This document shows, piece after piece, positions 38,563-45,091 of a stretch of 64,000 nucleotides of DNA. This DNA is from an uncultured Oscillospiraceae bacterium (GTDB lineage: Bacteria > Bacillota > Clostridia > Oscillospirales > CAG-382). The stretch lies in NCBI GenBank assembly GCA_964485815.1, contig CAZAJX010000001.1, forward strand, positions 7,866-71,865. Direction: 5' to 3'. The first letter of the stretch is position 1. Every line of letters begins with the position of its first letter. The position numbers were made by a program, and so were the translations under genes. The notes beneath the pieces were generated by a model. That model was given only the letters and a program-made list of their open reading frames with translations. It was not told the origin of the DNA and searched no databases.

Positions 38563-40857
38563 ATGCAGGATTTTATGGCGGAGATGAAAGCAATGCCCAT
38601 ATGGTTTCATTGGCATTGGGAACAGGATAAGAACGGACGGCAGACCAAAGTGCCGCACGATGCGAGGGGCGGAGTAACCGGAACTTCGGAGAATTGGTCG
38701 CATACGTGGGTCACATACGAAGATGCGCTTGCCCTAAAAGATGAGCAACACGCCTCGGGACTCGGCTTTAAGGTGCCTAACGGATACTTCTTCCTCGATG
38801 CCGATCATTACGGACTTGAAGACCCTTTTATACAAGTGCTCCTTGAACGCTTCAATTCATATACGGAGCGTTCGGTCAGCGGCGGAGGCATTCATATTTA
38901 CGGCAGATGCGATGTCGGAACGCTACCCATTATTACCGATAAAAACGGAAAGCAAAAGCTCGACGGCGCATTCTACGTAAAAAATCCCGGCAACCGCCTT
39001 GAGCTTTATATCGGTGATCTCACCAACCGCTTTGCCGTATTCACCGGAGACGTGGTATGGGAGCAACCGCTCAAAGATTGCACCAATGCCGTGCTGACAA
39101 CCCTCGATAAAAATATGCGCCGATCCGAAAAGAAAAAGTACAGCAAAAGCCGTGATGGGGACAAGGTCACCTTTGACCTCATCTGCAATCTGCGAAAGCA
39201 GAAGAACGGAGATAAATTCCGCAAGCTCTTCGATGACGGTGACATCAGTGACTACGGCTCTCACTCCGAAGCCGATGCCGCCCTCTGTGCCTTGATAGCT
39301 TTTCGCACCGGGGATGACCCCGATATGATCGATACGCTCTTCCGACAATCGGCTCTATATCGTGAAAAGTGGGAGCGTGATGACTATCGGAGTGCCACTA
39401 TCAATATTGGCATTCGTGCCTGCAACGGCGAATATCACCGCTCCAAAATGCCTCATCCGTATTTTGTCAAGTTCAACGATGAAACGGGACAGCCGTATAT
39501 AAGCATTCCTCTTCTTGCCAAATACGTGCGAGAGCATCTTTGCTATCTGCTTGTCCGTGACAATGGTAAACAAGGACTCCTTCGGTACGTTTACGATGAG
39601 GACGGATGCTACCGCTTATATTCCTCGGATATGTTCCTCGGAGCAATCAAGCGGTTTATTGCCGACTACGATGAGGAGCTTGTGAAAATGAGCAAGGTCA
39701 ATGAAGTCTTACAGCACATCAGCACCGATCTCAACTATATCAGCCAAGAAGAGTTGGATAGTGACGAAAGCATTATCAATTTCAAAAACGGTTTGCTGCA
39801 AGTCACGGAGACGGACACAACACTTCTTTTGCACACACCCGAGGTCATCTCTACCATACAGATCCCGTGTGAGTGGCGTGGGCATCCGACCCCAACCCCA
39901 GTGTTTGACCGTTATATGCATACCCTCACCAACGGAGATAAATCCACCGAGGAACTCCTCTTACAGTTCATAGGCGCGTGTATTTCCAATATGAAAGGAT
40001 GGCGAATGAAGAAATCGCTCTTCCTTGTAGGTGACGGCAACACGGGTAAATCACAGCTCAAAAGCCTTGTGGAGCGGTTGCTCGGCAAAGGCAACTTTAT
40101 CGGTATTGACCTCAAGGAGATTGAGGCTCGGTTCGGCACGGGTGCTGTGTACGGCACTCGTCTGGCGGGTAGTTCGGATATGAGTTTTCTTACCGTGGAC
40201 GAGCTTAAGACCTTTAAGAAGATGACGGGCGGTGACAGCCTATATGCCGAGTTCAAGGGGCAACAAGCCTTTGAGTATACCTACGGCGGACTCCTGTGGT
40301 TCTGTATGAACCGCTTACCGAAGTTCGGTGGAGACGATGGGCAATGGGTGTATGACCGCATTATGGTAGTCAACTGCCCCAACGTGATACCGAAGGAAAA
40401 GCAAGACAAAATGCTCCTCGATAAGATGTATGCCGAGCGTGAGGGTATCGTCTACAAAGCCGTAAAAGCCTTGCAGACCGTTATCGCAAACGGCTATAGG
40501 TTCTCCGAGCCTGAATCCGTAAGCCTCGCACGTGAGCGTTATATGAACGAGAACAGTACTGTGGTCTCCTTCTTTGAGGAGTGTATGTGTCCGCTCCCCG
40601 GCGGCAAAATCAATCCCCATTGTACTACCGGGCGCATCTTTCGTGTGTACCAGGCTTGGTGCTTTGAGAACAACCACGGCTATGCGAAGTCAGCCAAGGA
40701 GTTCCGCGAGGAGCTTACCAACTACCTCGGTACTACCTATGCCGATATGACTACGCGCCAAAAAGGAAACACCTACTACCGCGAGTACACGCTCACGCTT
40801 GAAACCAAGGAGCAATATTCAAGGGAGTACGGCTTTGATACCACAGAGTTCTTATGA
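38563..40857 (+). CDS. bifunctional primase-polymerase (AEP) / PriCT / D5_N-SF3 helicase (P4-family phage/plasmid primase)
   Basis: 764 aa. RBS AAAGGAGG. AEP motifs FFLDADHYG and SGGGIHIYG. PriCT-like SHSEADAALCALIAFRTGDD. Walker A VGDGNTGKSQ. Confidence 0.85.
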   Translation: MQDFMAEMKAMPIWFHWHWEQDKNGRQTKVPHDARGGVTGTSENWSHTWVTYEDALALKDEQHASGLGFKVPNGYFFLDADHYGLEDPFIQVLLERFNSYTERSVSGGGIHIYGRCDVGTLPIITDKNGKQKLDGAFYVKNPGNRLELYIGDLTNRFAVFTGDVVWEQPLKDCTNAVLTTLDKNMRRSEKKKYSKSRDGDKVTFDLICNLRKQKNGDKFRKLFDDGDISDYGSHSEADAALCALIAFRTGDDPDMIDTLFRQSALYREKWERDDYRSATINIGIRACNGEYHRSKMPHPYFVKFNDETGQPYISIPLLAKYVREHLCYLLVRDNGKQGLLRYVYDEDGCYRLYSSDMFLGAIKRFIADYDEELVKMSKVNEVLQHISTDLNYISQEELDSDESIINFKNGLLQVTETDTTLLLHTPEVISTIQIPCEWRGHPTPTPVFDRYMHTLTNGDKSTEELLLQFIGACISNMKGWRMKKSLFLVGDGNTGKSQLKSLVERLLGKGNFIGIDLKEIEARFGTGAVYGTRLAGSSDMSFLTVDELKTFKKMTGGDSLYAEFKGQQAFEYTYGGLLWFCMNRLPKFGGDDGQWVYDRIMVVNCPNVIPKEKQDKMLLDKMYAEREGIVYKAVKALQTVIANGYRFSEPESVSLARERYMNENSTVVSFFEECMCPLPGGKINPHCTTGRIFRVYQAWCFENNHGYAKSAKEFREELTNYLGTTYADMTTRQKGNTYYREYTLTLETKEQYSREYGFDTTEFL

Positions 40858-40864
40858 CCCCTTG

Positions 40865-41000
40865 GGTAGCAGAGGTAGCAGTAGTAGCAGTTTCAAAATC
40901 TTCTCAGCAAAATTCAGAAAACCTTATAAGTAGGTGTATAGGTAGAAAGAAGATATAAAAATCTGTCAGCAGAATTGAAATTACTGCTACCTCTGCTACC
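40865..41000. repeat. 19-bp perfect inverted repeat separated by 98 nt
   Basis: GGTAGCAGAGGTAGCAGTA (40865-40883) and TACTGCTACCTCTGCTACC (40982-41000), directly after the primase stop. Confidence 0.8.
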
Positions 41001-41170
41001 TACACGAAAGGAGGTGGTGCCTATGATTGTGTTTACCGATGCCGAGGGCCCGGTCAAATCTCTGTGACTAAAATTACGGAAAGCGGGCAAGGGCTCTCAC
41101 GCACAAAAAGAAGAATTCAAACGGGGTATTAACCCCTATTCAAACAAAATCAAAAATTGGAGGATTTTCT

Positions 41171-43187: not shown

Positions 43188-43197
43188 GGACGAGCCT

Positions 43198-43365
43198 ATG
43201 GAGAAAACCAAGGAACGCTCTCATAAGACCGAAACCATTATTGACGGTACGGTCTATATCGTGGAATCGGTTAGTGCCGATGCCGCCAAGGATGTGGTTT
43301 ACGGAAAGGTGAAAAAGCTCATCATCGACCACGCAAAGTTATCCGTAAGTTCACAAGCATCATAA
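43198..43365 (+). CDS. small TnpW-like protein (not in the supplied ORF track because it is under 60 aa)
   Basis: The ATG at 43198 gives a 55-aa product MEKTKERSHKTETIIDGTVYIVESVSADAAKDVVYGKVKKLIIDHAKLSVSSQAS. The pattern (T.Y.V....A.......KV..LI) recalls the small proteins next to TnpX-type recombinases. Memory-based. Confidence 0.4.
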   Translation: MEKTKERSHKTETIIDGTVYIVESVSADAAKDVVYGKVKKLIIDHAKLSVSSQAS

Positions 43366-43441
43366 CACAAAAGACTTGACTTTTTGGCGATAGTACGGGA
43401 TAATACAGTACCGCTTGAAGGCTGTCGGAAAGGAGTAAAAA

Positions 43442-45091
43442 TTGAATAACAGACAGCCTACTATCGCCAAGAACGATAAAATCACGGCATTATATTGCCG
43501 CCTCTCCCGTGACGATGAACTTCAGGGAGACAGCAACAGTATCATCAACCAAAAAGCCATTTTGCAGAAATATGCAGATGACAACGGGTTCGGCAACACA
43601 ATGTTCTTTGTGGATGACGGATACAGCGGAACGAACTTTGACCGCCCCGATTGGCAACGCCTCATCTCCCTTGCGGAAGACGGCAAGATCGGAACGGTCA
43701 TCGTAAAGGATATGAGCCGACTCGGCAGAGACTACCTCAAGGTCGGTTACTACACCGAAGTGTTCTTTCCGGGCGTGGATATCCGCTTCATTGCCATAAA
43801 CAACGGTGTGGACAGTGCCAATCAGCAGGACAGCGACTTTACCCCATTCCTCAATATCATCAACGAGTGGTACGCTAAGGATACAAGCAAAAAGATACGC
43901 GCCGTATTCAAGGCAAAGGGACAATCGGGTAAACCGCTGTGTACGAATCCGCCCTACGGATATGTAAAAGCCCCCGAGGACAAGAGCCGATGGATAATCG
44001 ACCCCGAAGCCGCAGAGATTGTGAGAGAAATCTTCAGCCTCTGTGTGCAGGGATACGGCCCCACACAGATAGCCAAGGAGCTGACACAGAGAAAAATTGA
44101 GAACCCCGTGGCTCACGCTCGCAGGCTCGGCATAACCATTCCGGCAAAGCCTCTCGATGATGACCCTTGCATTTGGCACGATTCCACGGTGGCTCGGCTA
44201 CTGACCCGTGTAGAGTATTTGGGGCATACGGCAAACTTTAAGACCTACCGCAAGTCCTACAAAAACAAGAAGCAGATGCACAATGACCGCGAGGAATGGC
44301 AGATATTTGAGCACACCCACGAAGCCATCATCGACCAAGAGACCTTTGACATCGTACAGAAGATTCGTGACGGACGGCGCAGGCTGACTCCTATGGGTGA
44401 GATGCCGATCCTTTCGGGAATGCTGTTCTGTGCCGATTGCGGTGCGAAGCTCTACCAGGTGCGTGGGCGCGGATGGGAACATAGCCAAGAATACTTCGTT
44501 TGCGCTACATACCGAAAGCAAAAAGGCAAATGCAGTTCTCACCAAATTCGCAACGTGGTCATTGAGCAACTTCTGCTTGATGACATCCGTAGAGTTACCT
44601 CTTATGCGAGAGAACACGAGGACGAGTTCGTAAGGCTTGTAACGCAAAAATCCAAACAGGAGACCGAGCGTAATCTTCGTGAAAGCAAAAAGGAACTTGA
44701 GGCAGCCAAGGCTCGTGTCAGCAAGCTCGACGGCATTATCCAAAGGCTTTATGAGGACAACATCGAGGGTAAGGTTTCCGATGAGCGTTTCGCAAAGCTG
44801 ACCGACACCTACGAAGCAGAACAGCGAGAGCTTGAACGGCGCATTGCGGAACTGCAGAGCTTTATGGCAAACGCAAAAAACGAGTCCCTTGGCGTTGACA
44901 CCTTCCTTTCTATGGTTAGAAGGTATACGGACATCAAGGAACTCGATGCGGAGCTAATTCGTGTGTTCGTTGAAAAAATCCTCGTTTACAAGGCAGAAAA
45001 GGTAGACGGACACAGGGTTCAGCGTATCAAAATCATATATAACGGCATCGGTGAAATACCCACTACGCCTATAAACGAGAAAACGGCATAG
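43442..45091 (+). CDS. large serine recombinase (resolvase N-terminal domain, recombinase domain, zinc ribbon, coiled coil)
   Basis: 549 aa. TTG start 7 nt after GGAG. Catalytic region [34 protein letters not shown], zinc ribbon CADCGAKL...C, C-terminal coiled coil. Confidence 0.9.

Follow-up and report, generated by a model that had tools for sequence, protein, structure and literature searches.

A 12.9-kb integrative island of gut Clostridia with a lone delta-less capsid gene and a cos-like motif, most likely a phage satellite

The 64,000-nucleotide stretch analysed here (the window), from a contig of an uncultured Oscillospiraceae bacterium (CAZAJX010000001.1), contains an integrated island of 12,906 bp (32244-45151). 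The island combines its own replication machinery with a shortened gene for an HK97-fold major capsid protein (MCP) and a copy of what is probably a phage packaging region, and is therefore most likely a phage satellite. More specifically, we assign a probability of about 0.62 to its being an integrative satellite of the phage-inducible chromosomal island (PICI) kind, most likely parasitising temperate HNH/cos phages of the Candidatus (Ca.) Heliusvirales type. An earlier sequence-only reading of this DNA had suggested a satellite lifestyle, and the suggestion is now supported, on stronger evidence than before, by a PICI-type origin of replication, by a homologue of the phage interval between the HNH endonuclease gene and the small terminase gene (terS) next to the MCP gene, by terS genes in sister elements and by the purifying selection under which the MCP stands in a family of more than 100 loci.

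The limits of the island follow from contigs of five sister samples (L146-L150) in which the site is empty and dapF directly adjoins an ArsB/CitMHS transporter gene. Identity between the window and the empty sites stops at the left CA dinucleotide and starts again at the CA at 45150-45151, which gives a size in agreement with the 12.9 kb proposed earlier, and alignment of empty with filled sites gave an attB of AAAAAATCACCTCT[CA]CGAGGTGATTTTTT. Only the CA dinucleotide is common to both junctions, and a 2-bp crossover of this sort is the typical product of a large serine recombinase. The filled site occurs in at least two further samples of the series, namely SRR14307658, where a contig crosses the junction with dapF, and SRR14307642, which contains a fragment of the same element. 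As judged from these alignments, the island is a discrete and recently mobile element. The insertion target is the loop of a bidirectional terminator hairpin common to the transporter gene and dapF. A CACC...GGTG stem is kept at both junctions (32228-32250 and 45140-45176), so that each flanking gene may retain a terminator-like structure after insertion.

The open reading frame (ORF) of the MCP opens at a TTG (42180), and the ATG supported by a ribosome-binding site (42249) yields a protein of 312 residues. This protein matches PF05065 (4.9e-67, profile positions 1-279 of 280) and TIGR01554 (3.6e-68, 230 bits, positions 85-385 of 385); the match to the latter begins at position 85, and the delta (scaffolding) domain found in HK97-like phages with a prohead protease is absent. 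An AlphaFold model from an alignment of 122 sequences, including representatives of 50%-identity clusters, reached a pLDDT of 92.5, and a shallow alignment (31 sequences, at least 57% identity) gave an unusable model with a pLDDT of 46.6. The best Foldseek matches of the good model in the PDB were the capsid of RcGTA (6TB9, 5.9e-22), Mycofy1, EcCI2 (9GYI) and HK97, and a sequence-profile search of the PDB with the MCP family was led by RcGTA, EcCI2 and Mycofy1 as well. Profile, model and structural matches to gene transfer agent (GTA), phage and HK97 capsids thus confirm the fold that had been proposed from sequence. As an observation in its own right, the solved structure nearest to the MCP, in the profile search as in the fold comparison, belongs to the capsid of the R. 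capsulatus (Rhodobacter) GTA (6TBA/6TB9), a particle with a small head that packages about 4 kb.

The short form of the MCP is a property of the family. Among 5194 homologues, the best 120 measure 300-316 residues, all but one of them 311-316, and the longest possible MCP ORF in every element-linked locus is too short to hold a delta domain. A delta-sized MCP was found at a single locus (L143), which also has portal and protease genes and is therefore a phage. The best 30 of the 50%-identity cluster representatives comprise 28 proteins of ~300-345 residues and two fragments, with none of phage length; phage-length MCPs dominate at lower scores, and 45 of the 46 members of one neighbour-joining clade are short. 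The nearest phage MCPs, at 38-43% identity, belong to Ca. Heliusvirales gut phages, Erysipelothrix phi1605 and streptococcal Javan prophages. They are about 400 residues long, with ~95 extra N-terminal coiled-coil residues, and their genes come after those for the large terminase (TerL), the portal and a ClpP-like protease.

No such genes accompany the MCP of the island. In tblastn searches with queries from the nearest phages, nothing significant for TerL, portal, protease, adaptor, TerS or HNH was found in the 64-kb window, and the other ORFs of the element gave no virion match in Pfam, PHROGs, NCBIfam or PADLOC. The element was described in the sequence-only reading as carrying a capsid gene and no other virion gene, and this description holds for portal, protease, terminase, HNH and tail genes across the whole window; the family loci likewise contain no conserved portal-, protease- or large-terminase-like cluster. 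With the MCP as sole structural gene, and given that encapsulins likewise lack a delta domain, the locus might be taken for a decayed prophage remnant or for a domesticated encapsulin-like shell gene. Both readings are contradicted by the precise, polymorphic insertion with an intact integrase and by the recurrence of the same compact architecture in more than 100 loci from many taxa. Pairwise dN/dS values of the MCP are 0.02-0.4, mostly ~0.1 (genes 93-99% identical), which indicates that the gene is maintained and not decaying; together with the conserved length, they refute the decay that had been named earlier as fatal to the satellite idea. An encapsulin shell gene would be expected beside a cargo gene with a targeting peptide, whereas the neighbours here are a replicon, small ORFs and a recombinase, with no cargo gene among them. 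Only the phage-capsid family was matched at E<=0.1, and in the structural comparison capsids of GTA and phages came nearest. The encapsulin-like compartment considered earlier thus finds no support, and we regard remnant and shell gene alike as extremely improbable.

The replication module lies at the start of the right half. Its primase-helicase, called at the same position and on the same strand by the sequence-only reading, matches NrS-1 pol HBD, DUF5906, D5_N and Pox_D5 in Pfam, the P4-family primase C-terminal domain TIGR01613 (155 bits, cutoff 108.7) and phrog_1829 (2e-116). A candidate origin starts 9 bp past the primase stop with three GTAGCAG iterons spaced 9 bp apart (40866-40890), followed by an 80-bp spacer of 69% AT and a second set of two inverted iterons (40984-40999). 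PICI origins lie directly 3' of the replication initiator and consist of two iteron sets around an AT-rich segment (PMC6092414); the layout of the predicted origin matches this description. Of 54 relatives, 36 have a perfect inverted repeat (10-19 nt) no more than 420 bp after the primase stop; most of these repeats begin within ~20 nt of the stop, and their sequence varies between locus groups. By our own estimate, chance alone would yield ~0.06 such repeats (10 nt or longer) per region.

The noncoding motif downstream of the origin links the island to particular phages. Megablast with the full-length element found nothing among phage records, and only a sensitive DNA search with the right half surfaced a short match: the noncoding segment ~41051-41138 resembles sequence in two phages, Terrisporobacter phage TPDSL_ph1 (90% over 51 nt) and a Heliusvirales phage of Oscillospirales. 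The motif is 75-90% identical to these two phages, in both of which it lies between an HNH endonuclease gene and terS. A profile of ~120 nt built from the three sequences (element and two phages) finds the same HNH-terS interval in four further phages, of Ruminococcus, Streptococcus, Erysipelothrix and Anaeroplasmataceae, and nothing in 18.9 kb of phage head and tail genes. A 17-mer taken from the motif picked out 80 loci in IMG/VR, and the full motif is present in 79 of them. In 69 of the 79 the motif stands between HNH and terS on the same strand, with HNH ~220-330 nt upstream and terS ~330-420 nt downstream, and in six it adjoins an MCP homologue with no terS adjacent. The HK97 gene order, on a circular or prophage map, places cos between the HNH gene (gp74) and terS (gp1). 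In that phage gp1 is TerS and gp74 the HNH protein that stimulates cos cleavage (PMC9410871). Since the motif occupies the cos position of HK97-like phages, we infer from this position that it represents the cos region of Heliusvirales-type phages. A structured-RNA reading was rejected: RNAalifold predicted no pairs from 65 motif copies and Rfam returned nothing on the element, which suggests that the conserved object behaves as a DNA site.

Of the 92 family loci with enough flank, 78 have the motif at most ~1.1 kb from the MCP gene, on either strand, and the 1.97 Mb searched contained no copy at a distance of over 1.5 kb from such a gene. Upstream of the MCP gene there are 55 copies in sense orientation, at a median distance of 288 nt, and a further 29 lie 8-138 nt past the MCP stop, 25 of these on the opposite strand. 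These positions bear on a second reading, in which the motif is a late-gene promoter or operator for the late activator of the helper; the element would still be a satellite, the helper would switch on its MCP operon and packaging would use another signal. The 55 sense copies upstream of the small-ORF/MCP block are as such a reading would have it, and in phages the motif ends 15-30 nt before terS, with a transcriptional-regulator gene upstream of HNH. The 25 opposite-strand copies downstream of the MCP gene, however, argue against a promoter of the MCP operon and are compatible with a packaging site; the motif also occupies the cos position of HK97-like phages, and we consider the regulatory reading unlikely. 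Two motif copies each were seen in L004/L085, L005, L010, L011 and L034. In L034 both lie upstream on the + strand, and in the others they bracket the MCP gene, one upstream (+) and one just downstream (-).

Sister elements extend the resemblance to phage packaging genes. In 11 sister loci a P27-family terS (PF05119, above cutoff) stands directly upstream of the MCP gene, in the order motif, terS, MCP (e.g., L040), and its best phage matches (50-57%) are to the same phage records as those of the MCP. With this order and these shared matches, the module looks like a phage packaging/head region, which in the element would have been stripped of TerL, portal, protease and delta domain. The Ca. Heliusvirales are a widespread gut phage lineage (PMC11283538).

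The search for MCP relatives yielded loci in 80 species genomes and on 63 contigs of IMG/VR, the hosts including Oscillospiraceae, Lachnospiraceae, Christensenellales and Anaerovoracaceae. By tblastn and ORF clustering, most genome loci that extend far enough keep the order primase, small ORFs, MCP, small ORF, recombinase, a synteny seen in most of the genome and IMG/VR loci taken together. The cargo is variable (mostly type I, II and III restriction-modification (R-M) systems), and so is the recombination module, which consists of TnpW with one serine recombinase, of two tandem serine recombinases, or of Xis with a tyrosine integrase.

In the island itself, the large serine recombinase had been identified correctly from sequence, and carries Resolvase, Recombinase and Zn_ribbon_recom domains and a TnpX-type DUF4368 tail. 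The 55-aa ORF before it, previously called TnpW-like, is present and does match PF14202, with a score (22.2 bits) below the 25-bit cutoff; it sits where Xis sits in the relatives with a tyrosine integrase. Like Tn4451 and Tn4453, the island thus has a TnpX-type recombinase with DUF4368 after a TnpW-like ORF and a 2-bp crossover, and its R-M cargo is of a kind carried by many integrative mobilisable elements. One might therefore see in it a Tn4451-like mobilisable transposon, or another such element, spread by conjugation and carrying the MCP gene and motif as a leftover phage fragment. The resemblance is confined to the recombination module. The TnpZ (Mob/Pre) relaxase with its oriT, TnpV and TnpY are all missing, and domain searches found no relaxase or Mob domain in any ORF of the element; in their place it carries a replicon, the MCP gene and a motif of phage origin. 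Across the family, moreover, the MCP and motif form the conserved core, the former under purifying selection, and the recombinase is the part that is swapped (serine, double serine or tyrosine). We accordingly think a Tn4451-like transposon, which the sequence-only reading had kept in view, very unlikely. The phage-transduced clostridial transposon Tn6215 lacks a capsid gene; it was rejected as a known equivalent (transduction by phiC2) because its ORF list contains neither a capsid nor a primase gene.

A lone MCP gene had also been said to fit neither known satellite pattern cleanly, and here the sequence-only reading was mistaken. Single capsid homologues are known from SaPIbov5, EcCICFT073 (c1499) and PmCI172, the last carrying an MCP homologue (PMC6092414), and the PICI model of SatelliteFinder includes a capsid-type component (PMC10085698), so the architecture does fit a known pattern. 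The closest analogues of the element are cos-type PICIs such as SaPIbov5. Both SaPIbov5 and SaPIbov4 carry the helper cos and the capsid homologue Ccm, and no terS (PMC5052747, PMC8569155). Like these two, the element is an integrative island of ~13-14 kb that has a replicon of its own, lacks terS, carries a counterpart (here a cos-like motif) to the cos region of the helper, and encodes one HK97-fold capsid homologue as its sole structural gene. We liken its putative helpers to that of SaPIbov5, a cos phage that depends on HNH and whose capsid protein includes a delta domain (PMC5052747, PMC8569155).

The two systems also differ. Ccm keeps an 87-residue delta domain and the element MCP has none; Staphylococcus aureus pathogenicity islands (SaPIs) use a tyrosine integrase, and the element a TnpX-like large serine recombinase. 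The P4/NrS-1-type primase, the anaerobic Clostridia hosts and the putative Ca. Heliusvirales helpers further set it apart from SaPIbov5. In the profile search of the PDB, the MCP family matched no SaPIbov5 or phi12 chain at E<=1e-3, and no homology to the operon I-like genes of SaPIbov5 was detected among the small ORFs, which are without family matches apart from weak ones for s2. The resemblance is, by this comparison, one of functional analogy and not of lineage membership.

With PICIs in general, the element shares an integrase, a regulator, a primase-replicase with a predicted 3' origin of iteron/AT-rich/iteron layout, a capsid-type gene, accessory cargo and, in the cos-like motif, a candidate packaging site. 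It has no tail, lysis, portal or TerL genes and is far smaller than the putative helper. For the capture of packaging it has no terS and possesses the ~100-nt homologue of the HNH-terS interval, whose identity as cos is positional. As in Gram-positive PICIs, where the repressor is divergent from the replication/packaging operon, a 69-aa helix-turn-helix (HTH) protein, a candidate master repressor by its sequence and position, is encoded divergently from the primase operon. Its gene is also called in L151 and L152 and is served by a consensus sigma-70 promoter (12/12, 37946-37918, - strand). The HTH regulator has no homology to Stl, and neither an AlpA nor an Stl homologue was recognised in the element. 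Site-specific integration at its own att site is likewise a PICI trait, with the difference that the integrase is a large serine recombinase where a tyrosine integrase is usual. The element thus appears to combine those PICI traits that sequence can address, its packaging signal being assigned by position.

Two other satellite types share individual traits with the island. Like the capsid-forming PICI (cf-PICI) EcCI2, whose capsid (9GYI) is among the best structural matches, it encodes its own HK97-fold capsid protein. The cf-PICIs, however, possess a complete head module, made up of portal, protease, adaptors, connector and terminase, whereas the MCP is all that the element has; no head module of its own was found in the window or in the family loci. 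Like P4, it has a P4-family primase-helicase (TIGR01613) and a size of ~12 kb, and it may also share the use of a helper cos site and small capsids. P4, which lacks a gene for a capsid homologue, relies on Sid as an external scaffold to resize capsids, in contrast to the element, in which no relatives of Sid, Psu or Delta were found. Distinctive of the element are the complete loss of the delta domain, the TnpX/TnpW module, the tight linkage of motif and MCP gene, the anaerobic Clostridia hosts and the connection with Ca. Heliusvirales.

A life cycle modelled on cos-type PICIs would run as follows. A helper phage would derepress the element, which would replicate to concatemers, and the helper TerS, TerL and HNH proteins would recognise the cos-like site in these and package DNA of unit length. 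The element MCP, unable to scaffold itself, would enter procapsids scaffolded by the helper around the helper portal. Such mixed assembly could produce small capsids that fit ~13 kb and exclude the helper genome of ~48-80 kb, thereby interfering with the helper; the related phage records measure 47.6-79.5 kb, or 4-6 times the element. Helper tails would finish the particle, and the serine recombinase would integrate the DNA in a new host. That the element MCP co-assembles with the helper capsid protein is suggested by analogy with Ccm, which occupies the pentamers of T=4 shells, the hexamers consisting of helper protein, and which cannot form capsids by itself (PMC5052747, PMC8569155).

Two other roles for the capsid protein deserve mention. 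As a tentative and rather unlikely proposal, the delta-less MCP alone might build a whole small shell around the helper portal, with no scaffold or protease of its own, unlike both Ccm-type co-assembly and the cf-PICIs with their full head module. The element would on this view represent a minimal type of capsid-forming satellite, and its family of thousands of members would be the main satellite of Ca. Heliusvirales, which are among the most widespread phage lineages of the human gut, shuttling R-M and other defence genes among gut Clostridia. Alternatively, the island might be a defence island whose dominant-negative MCP and terminase-sink motif block Heliusvirales-type phages, by which it would be neither packaged nor transferred. 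Its cargo is all related to defence, a delta-less MCP could poison helper procapsids, and interference is a known trait of satellites (PMC5052747, PMC6092414). A dedicated replicon with its origin and the terS genes of sister elements, on the other hand, serve amplification and packaging rather than interference alone, the size of the element remains in the satellite range, and a family that spans distant hosts must be transferred efficiently by some route. We judge an island that only interferes to be quite improbable.

Several observations count against an HNH/cos satellite. Within the 12.9-kb element there is no terS, and within the 64-kb window there is no helper prophage. The predicted attP junction (...TTTGCACCCACA-CA-AGATGGTGCAAC...) had 0 matches in IMG/VR, and a search of all loci for terminal direct repeats found no circular contigs. 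The matching phage records are all prophage or metagenome assemblies with arbitrary ends, so that their physical ends are uninformative about cos, and the motif could instead be a regulatory site of the late operon, which is the main alternative to its packaging role. Because the MCP, unlike Ccm, has no delta domain at all, co-assembly is only an analogy. Finally, Pfam, PHROGs, NCBIfam and PADLOC assigned no family to s1, s3 or s4 and gave only weak zinc-ribbon matches for s2.

If the satellite reading is correct, the strictly anaerobic gut Clostridia harbour a large satellite family of which we found no description in the searchable literature, and which can be searched for by its signature of primase with origin, cos-like motif and delta-less MCP. 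It would offer a natural experiment on a scaffold-less HK97 capsid protein in assembly and capsid-size control, as well as a route along which defence systems, R-M among them, spread in the gut microbiome. Virome and prophage catalogues would, moreover, have in it a source of error, with elements of 8-14 kb filed as viral contigs (IMG/VR) or as 'Bacteriophage sp.' (GenBank). Family members have indeed been deposited under the latter name (MT838964.1, L145) or as IMG/VR viral contigs of 4-18 kb (L081-L142), and virus catalogues probably count them as phages because of the capsid gene.

Table 1. Features of the island and of its junctions, in window coordinates
Feature	Position	Strand	Basis or remark
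attL crossover CA, left boundary	32244-32245	.	empty-site alignment
Left terminal inverted repeat GGTGCAACTTAGGGATTT, putative recombinase half-site	32250-32267	.	17/18 match to reverse complement of 45128-45145
DUF6809 gene, left end	32370-32720	-	PF20648 1.5e-25; recurs in 8 related loci
ApeA-like HEPN protein, cargo	32724-34151	-	PF18739 and PF18862, each 5.8e-6, above cutoffs
Type II(S)-like restriction-modification system, cargo	34091-37663	-	Pfam and PADLOC
C5 methyltransferase	34091-35041	-	within R-M system
Restriction endonuclease with FokI cleavage domain	35041-36600	-	PADLOC REase_II 9.5e-36
C5 methyltransferase	36593-37663	-	within R-M system
Cro/CI-type HTH regulator, 69 aa	37678-37887	-	PF13443 1e-7 (HTH_26)
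Leader with five degenerate ~68-nt direct repeats, core TCCAACnGGGGAGTGAGG	38088-38499	+	repeat search, 2 matches versus 0.06 expected
P4-family primase-helicase, replication initiator, 764 aa	38563-40857	+	Pfam, NCBIfam, PHROGs
Candidate replication origin	40866-40999	.	iterons / AT-rich spacer / inverted iterons
cos-like motif, candidate packaging site, ~100 nt noncoding	41033-41139	+	homologous to phage HNH-terS intergenic region
s1, 89 aa	41171-41440	+	conserved in 49 loci; no family match
s2, 93 aa, C-terminal CxxC...CxxC zinc ribbon	41453-41734	+	weak zinc-ribbon matches
s3, 71 aa	41759-41974	+	tandem paralog of s4
s4, 71 aa	42019-42234	+	tandem paralog of s3
HK97-fold MCP without delta (scaffolding) domain, 312 aa	42249-43187	+	PF05065, TIGR01554, model
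TnpW-like small protein, 55 aa	43198-43365	+	PF14202 1.2e-4
TnpX-like large serine recombinase (integrase), 549 aa	43442-45091	+	Resolvase, Recombinase, Zn_ribbon_recom, DUF4368
Right terminal inverted repeat	45128-45145	.	pairs with left repeat, 17/18
attR crossover CA	45150-45151	.	empty-site alignment

The remaining features of the island are collected in Table 1. Each of the four small ORFs between the cos-like motif and the MCP gene is preceded by a Shine-Dalgarno sequence, in line with the four RBS-supported ORFs noted earlier. The proposed tandem paralogy of s3 and s4, a link that BLASTP missed, was established by profile-profile comparison (hhalign 99.7%, E 2.6e-25). For the zinc ribbon the outcome is mixed, the CxxC...CxxC pattern being present in s2 and the family matches weak. 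The most widely conserved small ORF is s2, with a cluster in 61 loci and tblastn matches in most genome loci; a search for homologues of its protein returned six proteins.

At the position of TnpW downstream of the MCP gene, 19 loci (including L089, L099, L101 and L103) encode a 125-aa protein, ~1 kb downstream of the MCP start, with a sigma-70 region-4-like HTH and cysteine-rich zinc motifs. It has a weak match to the Terminase_5 HTH and might be a DNA-recognition (small-terminase-like) factor.

The defence cargo of the left half had likewise been anticipated, and consists of an ApeA-like HEPN protein, two C5 methyltransferases (PADLOC MTase_II, 9.4e-111 and 1.6e-117) and a type II restriction endonuclease with a FokI domain. 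Between the repressor and primase genes, the 600-nt leader is filled by the ~68-nt repeats, upstream of which lie a promoter-like site and a strong terminator-like hairpin (37956-38007). The repeats occur only in copies of the same element (L151, L152) and in none of the relatives, and could be operators, extra iterons or a leader RNA.

The same core was also encountered in distant lineages, namely Mycoplasmopsis gallinarum (L045) and the metagenome-assembled genomes of Pyramidobacter piscolens (L055) and an Atribacteria member (L017), which points either to transfer over a very wide range or to errors of binning and contamination. On one 26.9-kb contig (IMGVR_UViG_2846323532_000003), two different family members (L094 and L137) stand in tandem, each complete with a separate primase, MCP and tyrosine integrase and with type I R-M cargo.

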